Source: a virus
Length of the DNA: 60,289 nt
Reading direction: 5' to 3' (one strand)
Virus record (IMG/VR): IMGVR_UViG_3300031578_000002
Location: 1-60,289 of that record
Shown here: positions 7,319-57,548 of the stretch, in pieces
How the letters are laid out: each line of letters opens with the position of its first letter
Position numbering within the stretch: the stretch's first letter is position 1
Position numbers and translations under genes: made by a program
The notes under the pieces: model-generated
Told to the model about the DNA's origin: nothing
The model's database searches: none
The model's input: the letters and a program-made list of their open reading frames with translations, nothing else

Positions 7319-7912
7319 ATGAAAAAGATTTTAATGTTATTAATCACTATTATTCCAACAATCAATGTGTTCAGTCAAACATGTGGGAGTGCCTTATGTG
7401 AGTTTAGTCAACCCGCAGCCTATTTATCAATCACCTTACCTATTAATGATAAATCAAGGAACTATTTGGAGCTAAATACTTATTTATTTTGGGCTAATGG
7501 TAAGTTCTATACAATATCATACGATACTTGCAGCAACGTACATGGTTATTATCATTATGGAGATAGATTTGAAAGGAACGTATATTTATTTCGTTTAGAT
7601 GATAGTGTTTGGCATATTGCATCAAATATAATAAAAGTTGATTATGATAATGTTGATGCTAATGGCATTAGGTCATTCGATTATTATTTTCCCTCAAAAC
7701 ATGACATTACAGATGCAATTGGTAGTAAAAATATTAAAGAAGGTGTAAATAAGGGGTATGTTAAAAAACTTAGTAATGGCAATATTGAAATGAGATTGCT
7801 TTATTTTCATTGCAATGACCAAAATAAACGTGATTTGGAGTCATATTACTATTATTGGGAAGTAATTACATTTATCCCAACCAATAATGAATTTTATATT
7901 ATAAAAAAATGA
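7319..7912 (+). CDS. secreted protein with Sec signal peptide
   Basis: MKKILMLLITIIPTINVFS|QTC. Confidence 0.7.
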   Translation: MKKILMLLITIIPTINVFSQTCGSALCEFSQPAAYLSITLPINDKSRNYLELNTYLFWANGKFYTISYDTCSNVHGYYHYGDRFERNVYLFRLDDSVWHIASNIIKVDYDNVDANGIRSFDYYFPSKHDITDAIGSKNIKEGVNKGYVKKLSNGNIEMRLLYFHCNDQNKRDLESYYYYWEVITFIPTNNEFYIIKK

Positions 7913-8343
7913 TAAGGGCATCCCAATATACTAAAACATTTGGAACTGAAAAATTCAGAATATTTATTAGTCAAAAGTTCACGATTGACATGTTATATCC
8001 AATATATAATGATAAATCATGCGAGACGCTTTTTGACAATTGGCATGGAAAAGATATGCTTGGGTGGCATAGATTCAAGAATGATGATAAAATCATTCTT
8101 GAATTTTACCCAACATATTACACGATAAAAAAAGATGTACCAAATGCCATTAGCTATATGTTATCAATTCCACAAACAATTAATGATTTTATTAGTGATT
8201 TAAATAGATTCAACATTCAACTTTATTGGACCAATTGGGTTGACGAAAATTTTGAACCAAAAGATTACTTAAATACAGAAGAAATTAAACCATATTATGA
8301 AGATTTACTTGGTAAAATGGGTAAATCATTTGAATTAACATAG
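7909..8343 (+). CDS. hypothetical protein
   Basis: ATGA overlap with the previous gene. Confidence 0.7.
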   Translation: MIRASQYTKTFGTEKFRIFISQKFTIDMLYPIYNDKSCETLFDNWHGKDMLGWHRFKNDDKIILEFYPTYYTIKKDVPNAISYMLSIPQTINDFISDLNRFNIQLYWTNWVDENFEPKDYLNTEEIKPYYEDLLGKMGKSFELT

Positions 8344-10573: not shown

Positions 10574-11327
10574 AAAATTCTCTTAATATTTTCATTAACT
10601 GCATCACAAAATTCATTTGCGTTGCTGATTGTAATGAAATATACTCAAATGTCTCATTTGGTTTTTCAGTGATATTTTCCCAATAATATTTAGAAAGTTC
10701 ACTTTCCGTTAACAAATTCACGGTCTTTTTTAAATTAAGATAATCCGCAATAAGCATTAACGGTGTATTTCCATACCCATTAAATTTCCAAACATTTTGT
10801 GTATCAATTACTGATGATTCCCAAGGTTTAGTATCTAAACATTTTTTTAGAATATATGGTAATTCTTTATTTTTACCTGATTTAATTGTATGCAGTAAAA
10901 ATCTTTTTATTAATAGCGGAATATCATGACTAATTATATTATGTCCACATAATGCTGGAAAAAATTGTGGCTGTAGAATAATGCCCTCATTTGATAAATA
11001 GTCCAATACTTCCATAAATTGAGCAATCACAACGAATTCATCTGAATTAACAATTCTTTTAATTGAACGTTTTTGAACACCATTTTCTAAATAAATCGTA
11101 CCATAGGTTATTGCAATAATTTTGCAAAACTCAGGATAATTTGGTGCGTTATCTGCGTATGAAATCATGTTATTTTTTTCGTTGATTAAGTTCTTCCAAC
11201 GATCAAATAATTGCTTATCATTTTTTTCGAGTTCTTCTAAATTAGGATAATTTAGAACTGATTTAATACTAAAAAAAAGCATACTATATATACTTTCTTT
11301 ATTAAAGACTTCCTCAAATATTGCCAT
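10572..11327 (-). CDS. PolB-type 3'-5' exonuclease-like protein, catalytic residues degenerate
   Basis: PEFCKIIAI, LCGHNI..HDIP.L.KR, KPWE...IDT...WKF.G; ExoI DxE replaced by SIK. Confidence 0.7.
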   Translation of the reverse strand: MAIFEEVFNKESIYSMLFFSIKSVLNYPNLEELEKNDKQLFDRWKNLINEKNNMISYADNAPNYPEFCKIIAITYGTIYLENGVQKRSIKRIVNSDEFVVIAQFMEVLDYLSNEGIILQPQFFPALCGHNIISHDIPLLIKRFLLHTIKSGKNKELPYILKKCLDTKPWESSVIDTQNVWKFNGYGNTPLMLIADYLNLKKTVNLLTESELSKYYWENITEKPNETFEYISLQSATQMNFVMQLMKILREF

Positions 11328-11373
11328 ATTTTTATTTTTTGTTAATTATTACTAAATATAATTGTACTTAATT

Positions 11374-11715
11374 TCACTCAATATTAAAAATAAAATGAAT
11401 CATTTTTAATAAGAAGGACTTATTAAAATTTTTAATTTCCAAATAAATTTTTTGAATGTCAATAAACTCATATGACATTAGTTCGTCGAAAGTATAAGTG
11501 TTATTTGAATGTTTTAAAATATATTGAATCAATTTTTTTTGCCTGAGTTTATTTATCTTTTTTTTATTTTCAATTTCAATTAAATATTGCCCCCCCAATT
11601 GTTCAATATCAGAAATAATAATGTTCTTTTTACGATCAGTATCATCTTGAAGGTGTTTAGTGTATGCAAGATAACTAATATCGCTATCATCAATATTAAT
11701 ATCGTCTATTGCCAT
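11374..11715 (-). CDS. hypothetical protein
   Basis: ORF. Confidence 0.65.
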   Translation of the reverse strand: MAIDDINIDDSDISYLAYTKHLQDDTDRKKNIIISDIEQLGGQYLIEIENKKKINKLRQKKLIQYILKHSNNTYTFDELMSYEFIDIQKIYLEIKNFNKSFLLKMIHFIFNIE

Positions 11716-11720
11716 ACAAA

Positions 11721-12230
11721 TTATTCGTTTTGTTGATCTACGTCATCAATTTCTTTAATATGCACGCCCGAAGATTTAAAAATTGGTGCTTCTTTGGGCT
11801 GTCTTGGTTTCCTAGTTGTTTTTTCAGAAATTGGATTCAATTTTTGATTTAAATTTTTAAATGAATTAATTTTGAGTTCATCTAATTCGTTATAAAACTT
11901 TTTGGCCTCATTTTCTAACGTATTTTTCATTTCTTCCATTTTATCGGTGAACTCCTTCTCTTTGTTTGCAATTCGTTTATTTGTTTCAATGATAATTTCA
12001 ACAAAATTAATTAAATCATCGAATACAATTGTTGACTTTTTAGGCGAGATTTTTATTAATTTACCAACATCATTTTCAGTTATAAGTATACAGCTAATAT
12101 CCTTATTTTCGCTAAAAACCCACGTTTTGGGCATACCCACTTCTACTTCCCACCAGCCATTAACTGTATCTCTGGTAAATGACCTTATATAGCCGTTAGT
12201 TGGTTCTAATATTGTTTCAATTGGATTCAT
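11721..12230 (-). CDS. hypothetical coiled-coil protein
   Basis: ORF; P..W motif followed by a coiled coil. Confidence 0.7.
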   Translation of the reverse strand: MNPIETILEPTNGYIRSFTRDTVNGWWEVEVGMPKTWVFSENKDISCILITENDVGKLIKISPKKSTIVFDDLINFVEIIIETNKRIANKEKEFTDKMEEMKNTLENEAKKFYNELDELKINSFKNLNQKLNPISEKTTRKPRQPKEAPIFKSSGVHIKEIDDVDQQNE

Positions 12231-12233
12231 TTT

Positions 12234-12431
12234 TTATTTAATTAAATATGTAAAAAATATACTTATTGATATCCATAATATGATCTTCTCAACTTTGTTG
12301 AGAACAAAAACTGTTTCTTTATTTAACTTAAATCTTCCATACATTTTTATGCTAAGATCAGCGATGACATATAGCATAAAAATGATAGAAGAAATAAATA
12401 AATACTGATATATTTCAGTAGATATTAACAT
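12234..12431 (-). CDS. small 2-TM membrane protein
   Basis: Two hydrophobic segments. Confidence 0.65.
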   Translation of the reverse strand: MLISTEIYQYLFISSIIFMLYVIADLSIKMYGRFKLNKETVFVLNKVEKIILWISISIFFTYLIK

Positions 12432-12433
12432 GT

Positions 12434-12709
12434 TTATTCTCCATGTGTTTGACCTTGATGAACTTGTGTTTGCCCAACAGGTGTTTGTGAATTATTAATT
12501 TGTTCGGGTTGTACTGGTTCCTTGAAATATTGCTCAATAAGACCTATCTGAGCGTTTAGTATTGCAAGGTTTTTCAAGCTAAGAACCATATCATCAATCT
12601 TATTTTTGTAGTTAGTATCAGGGTCCTGAGCAAGGCGTACAAGTTCAATTTCCTCATAATACTTATCGTTCCCCAATTTGTTTAATAAATCTAATTTTAG
12701 ATTTGCCAT
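12434..12709 (-). CDS. hypothetical protein
   Basis: ORF with host-type promoter at 12745-12776. Confidence 0.7.
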   Translation of the reverse strand: MANLKLDLLNKLGNDKYYEEIELVRLAQDPDTNYKNKIDDMVLSLKNLAILNAQIGLIEQYFKEPVQPEQINNSQTPVGQTQVHQGQTHGE

Positions 12710-12781
12710 AGTTTTTTAATTATTAAATTAATTATTATTTTTTGTAAATTTAGCAATATTAATTAGAAGTTGCAAGTAAAA

Positions 12782-13207
12782 TTAAACAATTTCTAAAACA
12801 TTTCTTTTTGAGTTAATTGATTTATCATAAATAGTATATACTTCAATTAGGATATTTATGATATTTTTATTTTTTTGATTATCAATCTCAAAAATATCCC
12901 GCCAAAAATTTTCAAAATACTCAATAGATATTTCTGAATTATTTTTTTTCTTATAAAACTCATGATAATAGTATAAAAAGAAGTATTCTTTTAATTCGTC
13001 ATTGTCACTAAAATTAATATCTTCCTCCTTAAACTCATCACATACTTTATTAAAGCACCACGTATAATGATTACGAATATCATTGTCATCATTTAGACTT
13101 TCCTTATCAAGATAATACTTATAAATATAACGTAATAAGTTTAATGAAAAGTCCTTATAAACCTCAACTCTGTCTTTAATTATATAATGTTTCTGTGATT
13201 TACTCAT
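12782..13207 (-). CDS. hypothetical protein
   Basis: ORF; H..WCF.K....F..E.I.F. Confidence 0.7.
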   Translation of the reverse strand: MSKSQKHYIIKDRVEVYKDFSLNLLRYIYKYYLDKESLNDDNDIRNHYTWCFNKVCDEFKEEDINFSDNDELKEYFFLYYYHEFYKKKNNSEISIEYFENFWRDIFEIDNQKNKNIINILIEVYTIYDKSINSKRNVLEIV

Positions 13208-36629: not shown

Positions 36630-36702
36630 AATTTTTTATTTTATTATAAATACAATAAAAAAAAATCCCAATCTTATTTATTGGAGTCTTTTTACAGCCA
36701 AT

Positions 36703-44737: not shown

Positions 44738-44824
44738 ATTCGTATTTATAAATTATTATAGTTTTATGTAATTTATTATAAATACGTAAAAATAAGATAA
44801 AAACTTAAAAAACAAAAGTTTTTT

Positions 44825-46714: not shown

Positions 46715-47098
46715 TTAATTAAAACTTACCTCAGTAACAATTCCCGTTAACATTAACGGAGTATTAATTTTTTTCCAATTAGTTAGATTATTTGACATCA
46801 TTGGTTTACCACCAGCACTTTTATTTACCGCTAAGGTAATATGGGGTTTGGCGTTTTGACTATAAAATCCTGAAACACCAACTGCCATTACTTTATCATT
46901 TACAGCAATATCATCTACTGTTAGTCTTATTGGCATGCCCAAATATTTTTCATATTCGGGATTAATTTCACCTAAGTTTATTGTCATATGATGTGCAATA
47001 ACAGTCCAACCCTCAGGTATTATTGAGTTAAATTTTTTTATTAATCTTTTTCTTGACCTTTCATCAAGAACCACTGCACTATATGATACGTTACTCAT
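46715..47098 (-). CDS. 2H phosphoesterase (tRNA-ligase CPDase-like)
   Basis: AHHMTI and PHITLAV...G.P..SN. Confidence 0.85.
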   Translation of the reverse strand: MSNVSYSAVVLDERSRKRLIKKFNSIIPEGWTVIAHHMTINLGEINPEYEKYLGMPIRLTVDDIAVNDKVMAVGVSGFYSQNAKPHITLAVNKSAGGKPMMSNNLTNWKKINTPLMLTGIVTEVSFN

Positions 47099-48626
47099 GT
47101 AATTTCTTTAAAATACTATAAAAACTTTCAATAAGATTATCTTTCGAATCTTTTAATACTTGTTGGTACTCACCAGTAACACCTAGTGTTTTTGCAACAT
47201 CCATTGGTGTAATATGCCTTGCTGGTGTTATATTTGCTTGTATATCATTTGTTTCACTTACGGTCTTATTTAAATGACTGTTAATATAATCTAATAGTAA
47301 ATTAACAACACCAGTTACCGTATCAAAAACTCTTATCATTGCCTCCTTATCTGCACCCCATATTGCCACATAATTTAAAGAAGTTGTTTTTAAATCAAAG
47401 CCATATGATGCCATTATCATCCATGCCGATAATTCGGCTTGTTGTTCAACAAGTTCCCTGCCTTCACTTGTTCCTACAAAATATTGTGCGAATTTTGAGT
47501 TTTTGTTTTTTAGATAATTTTGATGTAATAGCTCATGACTTGTTTCATGCGCAAGTGTTTTTGTAATACCAACATCATTACCTTCACTTTTTAATAATTG
47601 AATTTTTCCACCACTACTCATTCCTCTTGCGCCATTTAAATTATCGATTATCTCAACAGCAATTCCATTTTCCTTATCAAATTCCAATAAGGCATTGTAT
47701 ATTGGCCTGACTTCATCGCTAATCATATTTTCTTCAAACCATTTAATGTCATTACGCTTTTCAATATCTCCAACTAAATTCTCCTTACCTTCAATTTGTG
47801 CTGTATTTGAAATATCATATACTGGCGTAAATTCAAATTGTCGTCTGGTTAATCTACCACGAAGAATTATACTAAGTCGTTCTTTTTCACCAGCACCTAA
47901 TTCATCATATTTTCGTTTATTAACTGATTGTAAAAATTTAGCAATGATTTCTTTCTCCTGATCTTTTGAATATTTTTGCAATGCACTTTTTGCTGGAGAA
48001 CGTACAATCATTCTGTTGGATTTATCAATAATTGTTCTATTAAATTTCATCCAGTTAATTTCGCTTTTAACCATTCTTGCATTTGGGTTTTGAATCCAAA
48101 TTAATATAGTGTTGGTGAAACTATATTGATGACCTTGTGCGTTTTTAAATGCAGTTATTATCTGCATGGTTTTTTTAAATTCATCATCATCATCGAGATT
48201 AACAAGTGTTTCTTTAAATTTAGCAAGTCTATCAACAACATTTCGTTTTTCATCAGAAGTAATACCATCATCACCAGTTTCGGATGTTTTAGCTGATTGG
48301 ACTTCACCTATCACAGCATCAAGTGATGAAACCAATGACGCTTTACTTTCCTCTTCAGGAGCACCTTCTAATCTATGTACTTCACGTAGTGCTGGTTCAA
48401 TAAATTTAGAGTAAACATTTTGCCACTGATCTTTAGTCTTGCCAATATACCAATACCAAATTTTATATTCACCATTCCATTTGGCACCAAAATTTTTAAA
48501 TATATCTTTGTATTTGTAAGTTTCTTTATTTTCAGGAAGATTGGGGTCGAAGTAAGCAATATTATTACCATTAGAATCTAATCTTTTACTTATTTTAAAT
48601 GCCTCATTTAAAGTTTTCATTTTCAT
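47091..48626 (-). CDS. ArdC-like ssDNA-binding plus MPTase zincin protein
   Basis: K..GAKW.....W N-domain; YSFTNTILI..Q.P.A...W...R; PVYDISNT; TLAHETSHELLH; EQQAE; YVAIWG. Confidence 0.8.
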   Translation of the reverse strand: MKMKTLNEAFKISKRLDSNGNNIAYFDPNLPENKETYKYKDIFKNFGAKWNGEYKIWYWYIGKTKDQWQNVYSKFIEPALREVHRLEGAPEEESKASLVSSLDAVIGEVQSAKTSETGDDGITSDEKRNVVDRLAKFKETLVNLDDDDEFKKTMQIITAFKNAQGHQYSFTNTILIWIQNPNARMVKSEINWMKFNRTIIDKSNRMIVRSPAKSALQKYSKDQEKEIIAKFLQSVNKRKYDELGAGEKERLSIILRGRLTRRQFEFTPVYDISNTAQIEGKENLVGDIEKRNDIKWFEENMISDEVRPIYNALLEFDKENGIAVEIIDNLNGARGMSSGGKIQLLKSEGNDVGITKTLAHETSHELLHQNYLKNKNSKFAQYFVGTSEGRELVEQQAELSAWMIMASYGFDLKTTSLNYVAIWGADKEAMIRVFDTVTGVVNLLLDYINSHLNKTVSETNDIQANITPARHITPMDVAKTLGVTGEYQQVLKDSKDNLIESFYSILKKLHE

Positions 48627-48789
48627 TAATATTATCAATACAATTATTTACAACAGGCTCAAACCCATCATTCATAAATCCATCATGAGTTATTTTTAAT
48701 TCCTGCTCAATGAGTATGCCCCTATATTCACTTTCAACACCCAAAATCTTTGCAATATCAACTGGTGTCACTAATTTTGCTTTTTTCAT
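48604..48789 (-). CDS. 61-aa HTH-like protein homologous to the C-terminus of the downstream ArdC protein
   Basis: VTPVDIAKILGVESEY vs ITPMDVAKTLGVTGEY; own ECF promoter. Confidence 0.6.
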   Translation of the reverse strand: MKKAKLVTPVDIAKILGVESEYRGILIEQELKITHDGFMNDGFEPVVNNCIDNINENENFK

Positions 48790-48801
48790 AATTATTGATT
48801 A

Positions 48802-48826
48802 TACGTTGTATTTAAATTTTTGTTAC
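48802..48826 (-). promoter_or_regulatory. ECF-type promoter GTAAC-N16-CGTA
   Basis: 12 nt upstream of ATG 48789. Confidence 0.65.
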
Positions 48827-51800
48827 GTTAATTTCAGTTAATAAATCCCGATCATTCAATGCCCATAACAGTAACTGCTTTAATTTTTCATTATTCGAAT
48901 AATCTTCATAGTTATTTTGTAGAAATTCTAAAACAGATGCTGCTGATGGGTCTTTATATGATTTTTCGCCATTTTGTGTGTTCCATTCATCGTATTTACG
49001 AACAAAAAACGGAATATTAACTATTTCATCATTTAATTTATATTTGCCATCACCAATTTCATTATATTCTTCAGTTAAAATACCACGGTCATTTAGTTTT
49101 AAAATGTTTTTCGATTCATTTTTTGTTGAAAAAATTAATTTATTCCCAATAAACTTTATTTTCTTTTTTAAATTTACAATATATTTATCACCACAACCTT
49201 TTTTTACATATGCAATTGTGATGTGTGCATGATATTCAGGAAAATCTGATGTATTCGGTAGCTCTTTTAATACTTTATTAATATTTGTTAATAATTTTGA
49301 ATTGACATCAAATTTAACAACATCAAATTCATCATTTTCAAATATTGAAATTTTATTTGTTGTTATTTCAATTGGTTTTAATTTAAAGTTTTTTTTATAT
49401 AAATCAAAAACCTCCGTACTATTTACATTATCGTGGAATCCATACAGTAATGTTAAATGTGGCATCGTTTCAATGCCAAACTCATCGTTTTTTTCATATA
49501 TATCATCTTTTTTGATAATTTTTGTAAATTTTTTCCAATCTGGAATGTCCAGCCCTAACATTAGTGCGCCATACTCAATTTGTGTTGTTTTTTTTACTTG
49601 TTCGTTAAGGCTTTTATCTAACAAAGATAATAAATCATTCTTATTGTTATTAACAGTATTTGAATAAATTTTTAATAGCATCATCTTTAATGTATCGCCA
49701 ATTTCTTTACCTTTTAATCCTAATTGCATTAAATCGTTTCCATTTACAGCTAATTCACTAATCGTTTTCGGATATTTACCTTCTAATAATTCTTGTGCTG
49801 CTGTTTTTATTGCATTTGGTAATATTTGACTATTAAGTGATATTGGTGATGTCACATACATATTATGAGCAATCGTTCTTGCTTCAATCATATTTGTTGT
49901 TTCACTGCCATCAAAGGCCATTTCTAATGCCTTAATCTCCTTATATGTATCAATATCACCTCTTAAATTGTTTTTGTAAAACTCCGCAGGATTTTCAACT
50001 AGATTATGTGAAATTAAATAAATAAATTCACCCATTGTTTTTACATTATTCCAAATTTTGTCATTAACTAATATTCCAGAATCTCTGCCAAAAATATTTT
50101 TTAATAAACCCGTTTGTTTTAATAAAAATGCTGCGGAAAATTTATCACCCTTTTTCACAATTTTATCAAATTCTGTTAGTATTCTTTCTGGTGGAATTTC
50201 TTTAATTCTTTCGGCATTATCCCTAATCATTTGCATTGTCTTTGGTTCAATCTTAAACCCAAAACGACTTGCGAACTGTACGACCCTCAGCATTCTTAAA
50301 GGATCGTCATTAAATGCTTCAGGATTTGCCGCTGAAATTTGTTTTTTCTCAATATCTTCCAAACCACCCAATGGGTCAATAAATTTACCTGTATTTATAT
50401 TAATTGCAATTGCATTGATCTTCACATCTCTTCTAATAAGATCATCCTCAATTGGTAAATTTTCATCGCTCTGAACATCAAAACCACGATAGCCACCTTC
50501 ACCATTTAATTTTTCTTTTCTCGGCAACGCAATGTCGTAATCAACACCGTCCCCATCAACAAATTTAATAACACCAAATGATTTACCAACAACATCGACT
50601 TTACCAAATTTTTGTAAGTGCGCTATTAGTGCATCAATTGGTACTTCTCTAACAACCAAATCTATATCCTTATTGGGTTTATTGAGTACAAGATCACGAA
50701 CTGCTCCACCCACTACGTAAATATCTGACATTAAGTCTTCAATTAATGATTTAATAAATGGCTTACTTATTAATCCATTTCTAAAATCACTAATTTTATT
50801 GTTGCTGTTCATTAATTTAGTTTCGTTAATTGCTGAGGTCTTTATCTTATTTTTTCTCATAAGTTCGGATACAATAAAATTAACAATATCATCATATTCT
50901 TCACCAAATACTTCACGAGCAATATTTCTATTATAATAAATTATTAAATAATAGAAATATATGTCATCCATATCTTCATCCGAAAGATATTGTTTATTGT
51001 TTGCAATATTAATATAATTTTTAATATTATCATAAAATTCTTTCATTTTATCTATGCTAATGTTTTTATATGTATTGCTACCCATTACTTGAAGGTCTTC
51101 GGTAATATCATTATCTTTAATAATCTTAATTTGTTTGGGGCTAAAAACAAAATAATCATCATCAAGTTTTGCCCCATCATATCCCATTTCACGTAGCTGA
51201 CCTAAACCATATTTACTATATTCATTCCAACCCGCCATTTTTTTGATTGATAAATACGCTTTAATAATTCTACTTCTTCCAGCAGCACCAGCATCGCCTC
51301 TTTCGATTTTATCTCTATCAGATGAAAACCATATAATTGGTTGTGCGGCATTTTTTAAGCTAAATTTATTAAAATCTTGATTAGTACCATGATAAACAAC
51401 TAGTGGTTTACCTGTGTTATCAACAACTTTTGAACCATTAAACCATTCGGAGTTAACGGCTTCATCAATTTTTTTAATTTCTAGATTATTGATATCTCCT
51501 TGATTACAAGCAGCACTAGTATTTCCTAAACCAGCTAATTTACATTTTTTTTTAACATTTACCGTACTACTACCAGCCATTGATGAAATAATTCTTTCAA
51601 CCAATTCATCAATTGTGTATTTATCTTGCGTTGCATCATCGACATGATGATATTCCAAATCTTCATACATATCATCACTGGTTCGAATATTATTATCTGT
51701 CATTGGCGATGAATCATATTGACTATATGGCGGAAAACCATCCTGTCCTATTGAGTTGTCCGTTGAGTACAGTGAAGTACCATCCTCATCCATTTCAATT

Positions 51801-54142
51801 TTTTGTGGCTGTTTCTCGTTAAAAGCAATATCACCCCAACCCATGTCAAAAAACCCTAAATTACCGTTCTTTTTATAACCCAAATTCGATGTATTATAAA
51901 AATCAGCACTTTTTATCCCATATTTGCGTGCTTCATCAGCAATTGCCAAAAGTCCATAATAAAATTTTGCATCTTCTGGATTTTTTAATAAGTACTTATC
52001 GATCTTATCTTTATTTAAATCATATCCGCCATATAAATAATCATCAAGAACAGAATAAAAATTTAAACCTAATATATTGTTAAAAGCATATTGTAATCTT
52101 TTAACGATTCTATCAAAATATTGTTGATCGGTTTTTAGTTTTTCTGATATAATCACATATGACTGAGGTATTGGTGAAGTTTTTTGTGGTGTAATTTCGA
52201 ATACATCATATATATTAGCTAAATGTTCTAATTCAATTCCTTTTACCTTTAAACTTTCAACTGCTTCACTTTTATCTGAGGTAACTTTCATGATTTTATC
52301 GTTACCAATATCATATGCAAAACCATGTCTGCCTTGACCAAGATATTGTGGTTGACTGAATCCATGTACCTCAGCAACCTTATTAGCAATTAAATCACCA
52401 ACGTTTCTATTGAATCTTCTATCAATATCTTCGGTAATTTCAACACTTTCTGGAATATAAACTGTTTGATCACTATTTAATTGTGGTTCAATACTGCGGT
52501 ATCCACCAAAATCAAAAAATTTTAAAACGCCATTTTCATATCCAAGGTTCTCTACATTACTATAGTCATTTGAATAAATTCCATAGCTCAGCAATTCTTT
52601 TTTTATTTCAACGATGCCAAGAATAAAATTGTAGGTTTTTTTTCTGCCTTCATTAGAAATGTTTGCTTCGGGATTTTGACTTAAAATTCCTTGTGCTAAT
52701 GCAATGATATTATTTGCATCAATACTTTTCTTTTTCATTAATATCATAAAATCAACAAAACCCATTTCATTAGGCATTATCGCATCAACAATATTAATAT
52801 ATCTCCAAAATTCTTGAACGGGTTTATTTTCAACATTTTCCTCAATAAATCCAAAAAATGCCTGATTTTTTTCAGTATCAACAATTTTATATATATTATA
52901 TACCGCAGCAATATGTATGGGTTTTGCTCCTAATAATTTAAATGCAGCATCTGCTTCACTAGCATCAGATGTTAATTTAAATATTTTATTGTTTCCGATA
53001 TCAAAAGCAAAACCATTTGAGCCACCGCCAAGTGATTTAATAACGGTGAATTTAAGTTTTTCACCCACCGATTTAACTAAATTATTCGCATATGCCTCAT
53101 CATCTAATGACATTGACACAACATCAGGCATATTAGCATTTTGTTCATTAATTCCATGTGCTTCTTTACCTAATCTATCCCTATTATAAACACCTTGAGA
53201 TATTAAATATTCTTGAAGTTTTAGTAAATTATCATAAAATTTGCGTTTATTTGTTGTATGATTTAAAGTTTCTTTTAAATTATTTATGCACTCATGAAAA
53301 TTATCAACAAGTACTGGTAAATTATTAATTGCTGTTTTAGGGTATTCATTTCTATTTTCAACAAACTCTACAAACTCTTCATTTATTGTATCATCACCAT
53401 CACCAACACCATATGGGATTATTGCCCACATTCCATGTCTTATCTCATCGCCATCGTCAATATCAGAAAGAATGTCATCATTACCGTCTGCAAAATTATA
53501 CATTTCGTACATACGATAGTTTTGTTTTCTTTGTGGACTATAATATGTATTGTAAACTTCATCATTAAGACCATAATCTGTTAATACAATTGAAGGCTGA
53601 CCCCCACGAAGTACTTCACCATATGATGATGGTTTTATATAATCTCCGGGTGATTGATTATAATTAGCAATTAGATTTGTTAAGTCTTGAGCAAATTCAT
53701 TTTTATTAAGTTCTTCTTTCATTTCAGGAGTTTGACCAAACACATCCCTCTTGCCGTTATTATTCGATACAAAATTCCTGACATAATGATATAATTCATT
53801 AAGACTTGGTATGCCCGTTAGTTCTTTAATTCTCTTTTCATTAACCTTTTTAGCCTTTTCTGAGATAATCCAAGTATCATCATCTGCTTCATCAAACACT
53901 TCTGTTACAATATCTTGAGCGTCAGGATAACGACCAACATTACTTTCAGCTTCATTTTGGGCAATACCTTTGGTATTTTTTGCTAGTTTTAATACTTTCT
54001 CACCATCAATATCATAGACAATTCTGCCACTACCACTACCAATTCTAGTTAAATTAGCATTAGCATAACTTATTCTCCCAGCAAACGATTTTATTTTAAG
54101 AAACTCTTTTAAGAAATTTTCAAGAAATTCTACATATGTCAT
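48812..54142 (-). CDS. polyvalent polyprotein: 3 kinase domains, ART-PolyVal-like, CCA-adding nucleotidyltransferase, Acb1-like 2H phosphoesterase
   Basis: GxGxxG/K/D..N/DxG three times; PLVVYHGT...GYDG; VGGAVRD..DID, DL.RRD..INA, DPLRMLR; PHLTLLYG and HAHITIAY; late motif at 54162-54170. Confidence 0.85.
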   Translation of the reverse strand: MTYVEFLENFLKEFLKIKSFAGRISYANANLTRIGSGSGRIVYDIDGEKVLKLAKNTKGIAQNEAESNVGRYPDAQDIVTEVFDEADDDTWIISEKAKKVNEKRIKELTGIPSLNELYHYVRNFVSNNNGKRDVFGQTPEMKEELNKNEFAQDLTNLIANYNQSPGDYIKPSSYGEVLRGGQPSIVLTDYGLNDEVYNTYYSPQRKQNYRMYEMYNFADGNDDILSDIDDGDEIRHGMWAIIPYGVGDGDDTINEEFVEFVENRNEYPKTAINNLPVLVDNFHECINNLKETLNHTTNKRKFYDNLLKLQEYLISQGVYNRDRLGKEAHGINEQNANMPDVVSMSLDDEAYANNLVKSVGEKLKFTVIKSLGGGSNGFAFDIGNNKIFKLTSDASEADAAFKLLGAKPIHIAAVYNIYKIVDTEKNQAFFGFIEENVENKPVQEFWRYINIVDAIMPNEMGFVDFMILMKKKSIDANNIIALAQGILSQNPEANISNEGRKKTYNFILGIVEIKKELLSYGIYSNDYSNVENLGYENGVLKFFDFGGYRSIEPQLNSDQTVYIPESVEITEDIDRRFNRNVGDLIANKVAEVHGFSQPQYLGQGRHGFAYDIGNDKIMKVTSDKSEAVESLKVKGIELEHLANIYDVFEITPQKTSPIPQSYVIISEKLKTDQQYFDRIVKRLQYAFNNILGLNFYSVLDDYLYGGYDLNKDKIDKYLLKNPEDAKFYYGLLAIADEARKYGIKSADFYNTSNLGYKKNGNLGFFDMGWGDIAFNEKQPQKIEMDEDGTSLYSTDNSIGQDGFPPYSQYDSSPMTDNNIRTSDDMYEDLEYHHVDDATQDKYTIDELVERIISSMAGSSTVNVKKKCKLAGLGNTSAACNQGDINNLEIKKIDEAVNSEWFNGSKVVDNTGKPLVVYHGTNQDFNKFSLKNAAQPIIWFSSDRDKIERGDAGAAGRSRIIKAYLSIKKMAGWNEYSKYGLGQLREMGYDGAKLDDDYFVFSPKQIKIIKDNDITEDLQVMGSNTYKNISIDKMKEFYDNIKNYINIANNKQYLSDEDMDDIYFYYLIIYYNRNIAREVFGEEYDDIVNFIVSELMRKNKIKTSAINETKLMNSNNKISDFRNGLISKPFIKSLIEDLMSDIYVVGGAVRDLVLNKPNKDIDLVVREVPIDALIAHLQKFGKVDVVGKSFGVIKFVDGDGVDYDIALPRKEKLNGEGGYRGFDVQSDENLPIEDDLIRRDVKINAIAININTGKFIDPLGGLEDIEKKQISAANPEAFNDDPLRMLRVVQFASRFGFKIEPKTMQMIRDNAERIKEIPPERILTEFDKIVKKGDKFSAAFLLKQTGLLKNIFGRDSGILVNDKIWNNVKTMGEFIYLISHNLVENPAEFYKNNLRGDIDTYKEIKALEMAFDGSETTNMIEARTIAHNMYVTSPISLNSQILPNAIKTAAQELLEGKYPKTISELAVNGNDLMQLGLKGKEIGDTLKMMLLKIYSNTVNNNKNDLLSLLDKSLNEQVKKTTQIEYGALMLGLDIPDWKKFTKIIKKDDIYEKNDEFGIETMPHLTLLYGFHDNVNSTEVFDLYKKNFKLKPIEITTNKISIFENDEFDVVKFDVNSKLLTNINKVLKELPNTSDFPEYHAHITIAYVKKGCGDKYIVNLKKKIKFIGNKLIFSTKNESKNILKLNDRGILTEEYNEIGDGKYKLNDEIVNIPFFVRKYDEWNTQNGEKSYKDPSAASVLEFLQNNYEDYSNNEKLKQLLLWALNDRDLLTEINVTKI

Positions 54143-54205
54143 ACTTAAATTATAATACTAATATAAATACAAACACATAGATAAAAAGAAATAAAAAAAA
54201 CGCAA

Positions 54206-54850
54206 TCAATGTTGCGTTTTTGCTTTACTTTTAGCTTGAATTTCTTTTATGGTTTCATAAACCAATGATTTAATCATTTCTTTATTTTCTGTAAGTACCT
54301 CTTTTATTCTTTCAACAGCATACATTTCAAGTATGGTATTCTTTATTGCTTCTTCGAAGATTGGTCCTAAATTTTGAACTAAATGATCATTTACAATAGT
54401 CTTAACATTTTCAGCTAAATATGCCTCATTAATTTGCTGTGGTTTTATACCGTTATTTTGTGATACTGACTGATTAGTGTTTGGTTGATAGTACCCCTGC
54501 ATTGACTCAGATAATGTCTGTTTACGTTTATTTTCAATTTCCGCCCATAATTGTTCATCTCTTTCAGGTGACATATTAATTGAAGATAAGTTATTATTTG
54601 ATTGTCTTTGTGTTGGCGTTACCACTTCATTTACTGGTAACTTAGCATTTTCGCCCTTTTTTATTGCAACTTTATTGTCAACGGTTTTAACTAATGCTGA
54701 TGATTCTGTTTCCCTTCCAGTGTTTAATGATTCAAGCAATCCATTTAAAAATGCATCACGGGGTGCTGCACCAGAATTCACTCCAATGCCCTTATCTCGT
54801 TTACGTGTATCTATTTCTGTTCTCAGTTTATTTAAATCAGGTTTTGCCAT
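54206..54850 (-). CDS. hypothetical late protein (possible head/scaffold-associated)
   Basis: Late motif at 54882; LSE/INE/LTE sites. Confidence 0.6.
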   Translation of the reverse strand: MAKPDLNKLRTEIDTRKRDKGIGVNSGAAPRDAFLNGLLESLNTGRETESSALVKTVDNKVAIKKGENAKLPVNEVVTPTQRQSNNNLSSINMSPERDEQLWAEIENKRKQTLSESMQGYYQPNTNQSVSQNNGIKPQQINEAYLAENVKTIVNDHLVQNLGPIFEEAIKNTILEMYAVERIKEVLTENKEMIKSLVYETIKEIQAKSKAKTQH

Positions 54851-55827: not shown

Positions 55828-56106
55828 TTAACAATTACCACAACCATATGGCTTAGCTACTGTATAGTGATTTGCATTTTTCCCTAATAAAGCATTCCTA
55901 CATTCAATATCAAAATTGGTACCGATTGTGCTACTAGTACTTGAGTCTTTTGGGTCTCTTCCTCTACAATCACCATCAGAAATTACATCTTTATTACCAT
56001 CTTTATATTCATTTCCTTCAACATAACCACATGAATTTTTAATTAAACTACATGTTCGATAAGCTTCACTTAATGCTGATAATTTACTTGGGGTTTCGTC
56101 TGCCAT
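55828..56106 (-). CDS. small Cys-rich late protein
   Basis: Six Cys; late motif at 56140-56148. Confidence 0.65.
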   Translation of the reverse strand: MADETPSKLSALSEAYRTCSLIKNSCGYVEGNEYKDGNKDVISDGDCRGRDPKDSSTSSTIGTNFDIECRNALLGKNANHYTVAKPYGCGNC

Positions 56107-56930: not shown

Positions 56931-57548
56931 TCATTTTCTTTCCAATAACGTAATTAATTTATCAATATCTTTTTTCTCCAATTTATTGATTAACCCCGCA
57001 ACCTTTTGAAGTTTTTTATCTTTAATATCATTACAATCCCTTTTACCTGACAATTCTTCTTCACTTTTCTTTTCAAGCATTTTATCCTCAACAACAGCTG
57101 CTTCATCAATATTTTTCTGTTTTTCATACGTTTTATCAAGATTATCTTGAACAATTTTTAATATTGCTTTTGCTGTGGTTTTGTTATTATTTTCTAATTT
57201 AAAATCATCCGAAGATAATTTTCTGTAATCGCTTTTTAACTTATTTGGGTTTTTATAATAATATGTTAATATGTCTAATCGCAAATCTTGAATGAACTTT
57301 TCTAAATCATTTAATACATCAACGTCATCATTATCATGTCCATCATTTTCCATGAATGGCATAAGTGTGAAACCAAACCGACCAAGCATATCGTACCTAA
57401 ATGGTTGAGTCCCGATCTTTGCATTATAATCAGTGGTGTTATTTGCCTGACTTTCTAAGTCCGAACCATTACTTGGCGTATCGTTACCACCAATCAATTC
57501 ACCGTTTGAGTCAATTATTTCAGATAAATCTTTCTTCTTAAACTTCAT
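56931..57548 (-). CDS. hypothetical late protein
   Basis: Late motif at 57565-57573; LSE/FME/IDE sites. Confidence 0.65.
   Translation of the reverse strand: MKFKKKDLSEIIDSNGELIGGNDTPSNGSDLESQANNTTDYNAKIGTQPFRYDMLGRFGFTLMPFMENDGHDNDDVDVLNDLEKFIQDLRLDILTYYYKNPNKLKSDYRKLSSDDFKLENNNKTTAKAILKIVQDNLDKTYEKQKNIDEAAVVEDKMLEKKSEEELSGKRDCNDIKDKKLQKVAGLINKLEKKDIDKLITLLERK

Follow-up and report, generated by a model that had tools for sequence, protein, structure and literature searches.

A polyvalent multi-enzyme protein of a giant T4-like phage with a hydrophobic-x-Glu motif, the putative site of a T4-type prohead protease, at its module junctions

We analyzed the first 60 kb (60,289 nucleotides; hereafter, the window) of a 140,815-bp viral contig from IMG/VR (IMGVR_UViG_3300031578_000002). 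Because the contig was judged to be 46% complete, the phage genome should be about 300 kb. The source is a giant phage related to T4, whose tail sheath was found to be T4-like in homology searches; a soil habitat and probable Bacteroidota hosts are a guess based on the nearest matches to the major capsid protein and the sheath. An open frame at positions 48812 to 54142, on the minus strand, encodes a 205-kDa chain of 1,776 amino acids (P0001). By the criteria of Iyer et al. 2017, P0001, with its dozen or so modules, qualifies as a polyvalent protein, because an ADP-ribosyltransferase (ART) of the ART-PolyVal family (PF18760, 53 bits versus a cutoff of 31.2), a CCA-type nucleotidyltransferase, a 2H phosphoesterase, and kinase folds and motifs occur together in one phage chain. 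A multi-enzyme chain with an ART, a CCA enzyme, a 2H domain, and three kinase-like domains had been proposed in a preliminary description of this DNA, and the Pfam/PHROG, Foldseek, and motif evidence agrees with that proposal. Every joint between the modules carries the tripeptide hydrophobic-x-Glu (Phi-x-E), which persists while the modules themselves are shuffled among related phages. In the following, we describe the modules, the joints, and the timing of the gene, and we then consider whether the chain is cut at these joints during head assembly.

AlphaFold2 models were obtained for residues 1 to 900 (built on 45 homologues) and 881 to 1776. The chain starts with kinase-like domain 1 (residues 1 to 213; 53504 to 54142, minus strand, as for all of the modules below), which has a GSGSG loop at residue 35, the motif DYIKPSS, and DYG at residue 189, and a predicted local distance difference test (pLDDT) score of about 90 up to residue 195. 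Its N-terminal MTY.EF is kept among homologues, and no TY.EF N terminus was found on other proteins of the same contig. The preliminary description had closed this domain at INE-255 (53378). That site is real; the true end of the kinase, however, is probably MYE-213, an additional site inside a disordered stretch, which is 99% conserved and just ahead of which kinase-1-less homologues begin. Such homologues (P0062, P0083 to P0087, P0098, P0101, and P0117) start 8 to 17 residues ahead of a Phi-Y/H-E site (e.g., MANYKLYE| and MKKEQYRIHE|). The residues between the two sites (214 to 255; 53378 to 53503) form a disordered peptide of high conservation (pLDDT of <50 for 196 to 251), retained in all architectures in a single copy per genome. 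Residues 201 to 255 were considered as a targeting tag shared by several cargo proteins, and the idea was rejected on the basis of this single occurrence.

Next follows a helical module (residues 256 to 333; 53144 to 53377) with helices modeled at residues 255 to 315. It ends at INE-333, where E333 is nearly invariant and is followed by unconserved residues. Kinase-like domain 2 (residues 334 to 565; 52448 to 53143) has GGGSNG at residue 372 and DFG at residue 544 and ends at IPE-565, where an invariant Glu precedes a linker of low confidence (566 to 575, pLDDT of <50). Kinase-like domain 3 (residues 566 to 786; 51785 to 52447) has GQGRHG at residue 602 and DMG at residue 766 and ends at MDE-786, where the Glu is nearly invariant. 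The joint between kinases 2 and 3 had been placed at ITE-571, which lies in the leading linker of kinase 3; the conserved joint is instead IPE at residues 563 to 565 (96% of homologues versus 48% for ITE at 569 to 571). All three kinase-like domains have a glycine-rich loop and a D[FYM]G motif, and none matched any Pfam model. The model of residues 1 to 900 matched protein kinases and APH(2'') phosphotransferases (Foldseek E value of 2e-4, probability of 1.0), the match being to an unspecified one of the three domains.

A conserved nonenzymatic core occupies residues 787 to 894 (51461 to 51784) and is present in all architectures. It consists of a disordered DGS...SP stretch containing MYE-827, IDE-846, and LVE-849 (pLDDT of <50 for 786 to 858), followed by a two-Cys motif that ends at IDE-894. 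C867, C879, and E894 are invariant. The two-Cys motif (residues 850 to 894; 51461 to 51595), with the consensus VKKKCRLGGLGNTSxACNQGDINNL and the sequence VKKKCKLAGLGNTSAACNQGDINNL in P0001, was seen in every member of the family; it had no Pfam, PHROG, or atlas match, and an ESM Atlas search with residues 787 to 897 gave nothing usable.

The C-terminal half begins with the ART-PolyVal module (residues 895 to 1015; 51098 to 51460), in which PF18760 matched residues 908 to 969 (E value of 7.9e-14). Few homologues carry an ART, and the region was therefore modeled at low confidence, so its boundaries come from Pfam and homology only; its end, ITE-1015, is Phi-x-E in four of six ART-bearing homologues. 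A second helical module (residues 1016 to 1107; 50822 to 51097), helical in the model, ends at INE-1107, a site that is 80% conserved in a linker of low confidence (1099 to 1111, pLDDT of <50); MNE is the consensus ahead of the CCA module. Residues 1108 to 1514 (49601 to 50821) belong, as judged from sequence matches, to a nucleotidyltransferase of the class II CCA-adding enzyme or poly(A) polymerase type (PF01743, 1.6e-22; PF12627, 4.6e-14; phrog_2244, 8e-60). The PolyA_pol head and RNA-binding domains span residues 1141 to 1351 (Pfam, above the cutoff), the motifs GGAVRD and DID occur at residues 1145 and 1159, and homology ends at residue 1508 or 1514, the latter being LNE-1514, within a low-pLDDT linker (1512 to 1522). 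The 2H phosphoesterase (residues 1515 to 1691; 49070 to 49600) was modeled as a beta-rich fold with a pLDDT of about 90, has both H-x-T/S motifs (HLT at 1562 and HIT at 1640), and ends at LTE-1691 in the linker 1687 to 1695. Its match to Acb1 (PF23474; 23.7 bits) lies below the cutoff of 27 and ties with 2_5_RNA_ligase2 (about 24 bits, also below its cutoff). The last module (residues 1692 to 1770; 48833 to 49069) ends at LTE-1770, six residues ahead of the stop, and this Phi-x-E is conserved in 100% of 73 homologues. Antidefense roles of the parts, as suggested in the preliminary description, are plausible.

All 10 positions that the preliminary description gave for junctions fall on the third base of a Glu codon that closes a genuine [ILM]-x-E. 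The tripeptide occurs 38 times in P0001, compared with 24.2 ± 4.4 times in shuffles of the protein (z = 3.1). Low-confidence segments in the AlphaFold2 models were residues 196 to 251, 326 to 336, 566 to 575, 786 to 858, 892 to 900, 1099 to 1111, 1512 to 1522, 1687 to 1695, and 1766 to 1776. Each of the nine interdomain linkers holds or abuts a site, and wherever the model is usable the named sites lie within, or at the edge of, a low-confidence linker. Linkers defined by a pLDDT of <50 contained 12 or 13 of the 36 scorable [ILM]-x-E sites, compared with an expectation of 12.7 to 13.8% (binomial P of approximately 1e-3). The control motifs (Phi-x-D, Phi-x-K, Phi-x-N, Phi-x-[QST], non-Phi-x-E, and plain Glu) showed no significant enrichment in linkers, and hydrophobic residues as a whole are depleted there.

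More than 190 homologues (1,000 to 2,900 amino acids) with differing domain sets were found by database search in related jumbo phages, on contigs of up to 366 kb. Their architectures are mosaic: GNAT, ParB, CPD, and ART modules are gained or lost, and kinase modules number from zero to three. BLAST blocks against 119 homologues stop exactly after E255, E565 (30), E786, E846, E894 (27), E1514, E1691/2, and E1770 (36). Across the family, 53% of the well-supported breakpoints end in Glu (6.5 times the background), with Leu or Ile at position -2. Among 410 breakpoints in modules not present in P0001, 54 coincide exactly with a Phi-x-E, versus 9.8 ± 3.2 for random positions, and six control motifs were flat or depleted. 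The earlier caveat, that such tripeptides are common and that their enrichment at junctions needed statistics, is thus answered from three sides: structure, the breakpoints of P0001, and breakpoints in other modules.

The exchange of modules exactly after a conserved Phi-x-E, which had been raised as a check on the reading, is best seen around the kinases. The joint ...Phi-x-E|DGS(A/S)... is always restored (KYLNE|DGS, ISLPE|DGS, and EMDE|DGT), whatever the number of interior kinase modules in a homologue (three, one, or none). Kinase 3 is missing from many homologues that retain the joint as Phi-x-E|DGS, and where kinases 2 and 3 are both missing the end of the first helical module (E333) adjoins DGS directly. 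At these joints, Phi and Glu are conserved and the middle residue varies: residues 892 to 894 are INE, VNE, LKE, IDE, or IKE (Phi-x-E in 98% of homologues), and residues 1768 to 1770 are LNE, LDE, LGE, LSE, or LKE (Phi-x-E in 100%). Both E565 and E894 are invariant, and the residues just behind them are not conserved. In the pair at 844 to 849, LVE-849 is the better conserved, with E849 nearly invariant, and the LKE/LPE-13 site near the N terminus is 73% conserved. At three of the family's junctions, INE is more frequent than any other tripeptide.

At the C terminus, more than 50 homologues carry additional modules after position 1770. A CPD-type 2H gene that stands alone in this phage (127 amino acids; 46715 to 47098, minus strand) has its counterpart in many relatives as the last module of the polyvalent chain. 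The CPD module is fused in more than 50 homologues, one to four acidic residues behind ...DRDLLxE or ...KGILKE, and several of the fusions retain the former start Met. As a separate observation, the linker ...Phi-x-E|GV(A/G)DKYAEK recurs after different modules in P0003, P0015, P0020, P0025, P0073, P0090, and P0099, possibly as another stereotyped element of junctions, in which Gly occupies P1'.

The gene is very probably expressed late, because the upstream gene ends in a terminator, a motif shared with head and tail genes precedes the start codon, and no sigma-70-like site was found between the terminator and the start. The terminator hairpin (54196 to 54221, minus strand), which has an equivalent hairpin and T run at orthologous loci, makes P0001 its own late transcription unit. 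The motif (GTATTTATA; 54162 to 54170, minus strand) lies 28 nucleotides ahead of the ATG, and the arrangement of terminator and motif was seen ahead of all 12 orthologues examined. Among words in the sequences ahead of genes in this genome, its 7-mer, GTATTTA, shows the strongest enrichment (7.7-fold). Genes with this 7-mer ahead of them include those for the tail sheath, a virion structural protein, and several large unknown proteins, as well as genes of the baseplate region; it was not found ahead of the polB, primase, SbcCD, helicase, or recombinase genes. On the contig as a whole, GTATTTAT(A) occurs approximately 21 to 48 nucleotides before the start codons of about 26 of 147 genes (e.g., at 54162 to 54170, 44777 to 44784, and 36645 to 36652), and it is probably a late promoter element of the phage group. 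The T4 late promoter TATAAATA was considered and rejected (27 matches versus 23 expected); its matches upstream of minus-strand genes are the reverse complement of GTATTTAT. The late motif of the preliminary description stands as GTATTTAT, which is common to the sheath and baseplate genes of this phage and the scaffold-capsid operon of a complete relative, and not as the T4 element in the coding orientation, which is not enriched.

Phage T4 gp21, the prohead protease, cuts after Glu with Leu or Ile at P3 (PMC5694885, PMC9026906), and replacement of the P1 Glu by Asp prevents processing in T4 (PMC9026906). The packaged ART of T4, Alt, is cut at ITE-6 and LTE-619 (PMC5694885), and T4 internal proteins lose a 10-residue peptide ending in IAE (PMC5694885, PMC9026906). 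The T4 precedent invoked in the preliminary description, i.e., the gp21 rule and the packaging and processing of Alt, is thus documented (PMC5694885). In the T4 record, the N termini read MKTYQEFIAE|A in IPII and IPIII, LIE-9 in gp21, and IPE in gp68.

Pfam searches for an S77 protease and for gp23 gave no match on the contig of this phage or in nine partial relatives, because none of these records includes the head module. A complete relative (G006; 324,744 bp), whose sheath is 68% identical and whose orthologue of P0001 has the same junction motifs, encodes both: a capsid protein of the gp23 type (PF07068, 6e-63) and a gp21-type S77 protease, the catalytic His and Ser regions of which align with T4 gp21. 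The gp21-like protease that the preliminary description had called for was accordingly found in the lineage and not on the 46%-complete contig itself. In G006, the GTATTTA motif lies ahead of the scaffold-capsid operon and of neighboring head-region genes. The G006 scaffold (511 amino acids, acidic) contains 25 [ILM]-x-E tripeptides versus 10.5 ± 2.6 expected (z = 5.5), and the same count for T4 gp22 gave 17 versus 6.7 (z = 4.6). The major capsid protein of G006 aligns with T4 gp23 on both sides of LTE-65|A, where it has M-I-N-E-60|S, the sole Phi-x-E available. At this position, 120 related capsid proteins have INE (115), LNE (4), or MNE (1), and INE-60 is the predicted maturation site of the capsid protein in this lineage. 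A further observation concerns the protease gene itself: the G006 enzyme is a 614-amino-acid open reading frame (L030, positions 11002 to 12846) in which the two S77 halves are split by about 380 residues. The insert begins with Cys right after the catalytic-His motif (ADHPD|C), ends with ...HWTGN|S, and looks like an intein with a LAGLIDADG-like endonuclease. The lineage's gp21 homologue is represented by P0121 of IMGVR_UViG_3300037424_001372, which has an intein.

Two genes downstream of P0001 lies an ArdC-like protein of 515 amino acids (47091 to 48638, minus strand) with the zincin motif HETSH. Its match to MPTase-PolyVal is weak (E value of 0.0076; 16.8 bits versus a cutoff of 27.5), and the gene occurs at two or three of 16 related syntenic loci and has no match in G006. 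Together with the preceding 61-amino-acid open reading frame, it is an insertion seen in only two or three of 16 relatives. Its N terminus, MKTLNE|AF (MKALNE|AF in L020), is a six-residue peptide ending in Phi-x-E, similar to ITE-6 of T4 Alt. Upstream of P0001, a 205-amino-acid protein (56931 to 57548, minus strand) that has the late motif starts with MKFKKKDLSE|IIDSNGELIG, and in 14 orthologues the first 10 residues are a basic stretch plus a Phi-x-E (e.g., DLLE, ELAE, QLFE, or QINE). Its N terminus has the length and shape of a T4 capsid-targeting peptide, and the protein is a candidate small internal head protein. A 92-amino-acid upstream gene (55828 to 56106) gave three tandem overlapping matches in L006, L012, and L021 around positions 7680 to 8234, a pattern suggestive of a repeat within the gene or of its tandem duplication. 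The phage contig (G000) also contains two genes for transposases, at 65557 to 66834 (minus strand) and 115251 to 116450 (plus strand), with phrog_506 matches at E values of 1e-47 and 1e-136.

Taken together, these results favor, at somewhat better than even chances, the reading that the chain is packaged, cut by an S77 prohead protease into separate enzymes, and injected. The P0001 gene would be transcribed from its own late promoter, along with the head and tail genes, and the full-length chain would enter the prohead core. The signal for packaging may reside in the N-terminal MTY.EF peptide, residues 214 to 255, and/or the core at residues 787 to 894, nonenzymatic parts that are retained in every architecture. 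A gp21-type protease that cuts after Phi-x-Glu would then cleave the exposed linkers and spare the 20-odd motif copies buried in folded domains. The released products, i.e., three kinase-like proteins, the ART, the CCA-adding enzyme, the 2H phosphoesterase, and small modules, would be ejected with the DNA and would therefore act before any phage gene is expressed. Such prepackaging would explain why activities that are useful early are encoded by a late gene. As for the preliminary description, which had put forward this scheme, its polyvalent chain, its late-type gene, an S77 protease in the lineage, and module swaps at Phi-x-E are borne out; packaging, cleavage, and ejection are steps that we infer.

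Several observations weigh against this scheme. Folded domains harbor about 24 of the 38 copies of the motif, which means that a cut site must be defined by more than the tripeptide, and ITE-1015 and LNE-1514 are only approximately 50% conserved as exact Phi-x-E. The head module and its protease are inferred from a relative with a 68% identical sheath, because the contig of this phage does not include the head module. The resemblance between MTYVEF in P0001 and MKTYQEF in T4 is a post hoc match of five residues, and the kinase-1-less variants do not have MTYVEF. A late promoter is by itself not proof of packaging, and the gene is surrounded by replication and nucleotide-metabolism genes, outside the head module. 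No cultured relatives or virion proteomes were found: tblastn of P0001 covers at most 20% of the protein (CCA domain only), and identities of the sheath and major capsid protein are at most 40% (36 to 40% for the best capsid matches).

The copies of the motif within domains would suit an uncut multi-enzyme protein, a late "Swiss army knife" for tRNA repair and host modification in which Phi-x-Glu is a structural end cap or a by-product of cassette recombination. The CCA enzyme, 2H, CPD, and HAD could plausibly form a single RNA-end repair pathway in which tethering could help, and three modules end in a short beta-strand directly ahead of the motif. We consider this explanation unlikely. Unrelated modules (helical, kinase, Cys motif, CCA, and 2H) share the end tripeptide while its middle residue is free, and the same motif stands at the predicted maturation site of the capsid protein and is abundant in the scaffold of the lineage. 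It is also not evident what the kinases and the ART would do in a pathway of RNA repair. Moreover, the CPD module works in this phage as a protein of its own, whereas relatives carry it as a fusion, so the module does not need a covalent link to function.

Partial processing is another alternative: the chain would be packaged and trimmed at its ends or at a few sites only, and it would travel as one or a few large multi-enzyme pieces with most interior sites uncut. T4 Alt loses just 6 N-terminal and 63 C-terminal residues (PMC5694885), the N4 virion RNA polymerase is packaged unprocessed (PMC5512222), and the best-conserved sites of P0001 include the terminal LTE-1770 and LKE/LPE-13. Yet interior Glu residues are invariant (E565 and E894) or nearly so (E333, E786, and E849) within variable, disordered linkers, and the interior sites are the points of module exchange, which makes this outcome quite improbable. 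Cutting by another enzyme, either the ArdC-like zincin (MPTase) or a host protease, in the cytoplasm or after injection, deserves still less weight and seems very improbable. The zincin gene is close by, and processing of polyvalent proteins by MPTases was proposed by Iyer et al. 2017 (PMC5512222). P0001, however, has no HExxH motif of its own, the MPTase match of the ArdC-like protein falls well below the Pfam cutoff, and the documented specificity of S77 proteases is cleavage behind a Glu that has a hydrophobic residue at P3. The ArdC-like gene is also unmatched in G006, whose orthologue retains the junction motif; given this distribution (two or three of 16 loci), we rejected the MPTase as a universal protease of the family.

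The packaging-and-cleavage reading can be extended, more tentatively and at somewhat less than even chances, to the idea that the prohead-protease site is the punctuation of a cassette system. A nonenzymatic chassis (the N-terminal peptide, residues 214 to 255, and residues 787 to 894) would carry the chain into the capsid, and modules ending in Phi-x-E would be spliced in, packaged, released, and injected. A single late gene would then be an evolvable, preloaded arsenal, and genes could shift between stand-alone and cargo forms through loss or gain of a stop codon directly behind the site. Should the chain indeed be loaded and cut up, kinases, an ART, and tRNA-end repair enzymes would be delivered before any phage gene expression, the paradigm of T4 Alt and the internal proteins would extend from single proteins to exchangeable cassettes, and a large class of polyvalent proteins would gain a concrete, trans-acting processing mechanism. 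The effect on the annotation of jumbo-phage genomes would be broad because the family is large, with more than 190 members. The rule that a module ends in Phi-x-Glu within an exposed linker could also serve for loading foreign proteins into T4-type capsids.

The proposed mechanism joins two known ideas, namely, polyvalent proteins and the processing of cargo by T4 gp21. Polyvalent proteins combine 2 to 15 unrelated effector domains per polypeptide in mosaic architectures, and their delivery with the DNA has been predicted, with processing proposed to occur via fused zincin MPTases or fused assemblin-like peptidases (PMC5512222). P0001 resembles them in its unrelated effectors, including ART-PolyVal, kinases, a Pol-beta nucleotidyltransferase, and 2H, and in its mosaic homologues. 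It differs in that it has no peptidase domain; instead, each joint has the kind of site that a T4-type prohead protease would recognize in trans, and its modules are cassettes that end there. Our literature search on the processing of polyvalent proteins by prohead proteases found no paper describing such an arrangement. With T4 Alt and IPI to IPIII, which are substrates of gp21 (MEROPS S77), P0001 shares a T4-type head in the lineage, a late-type gene, an ART, and the same form of site. The T4 cargo proteins, however, are single-function and end-trimmed, whereas P0001 is a 205-kDa chain with approximately 12 to 15 candidate interior sites and about a dozen predicted products. In addition, its ART belongs to the PolyVal family and may not be Alt-like. 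The giant phages phiKZ, 201phi2-1, and SPN3US resemble the phage envisaged here in that many proteins, among them ejection and inner-body proteins, enter the head and are cleaved by a prohead protease behind the Glu of a three-residue motif, in some cases at more than one site (PMC5694885, PMC10052503). Their proteases, in contrast, prefer a small P3 residue (S/A/G-x-E or A-x-E), and their substrates are mostly structural proteins or subunits of the virion RNA polymerase rather than strings of exchangeable enzymes.

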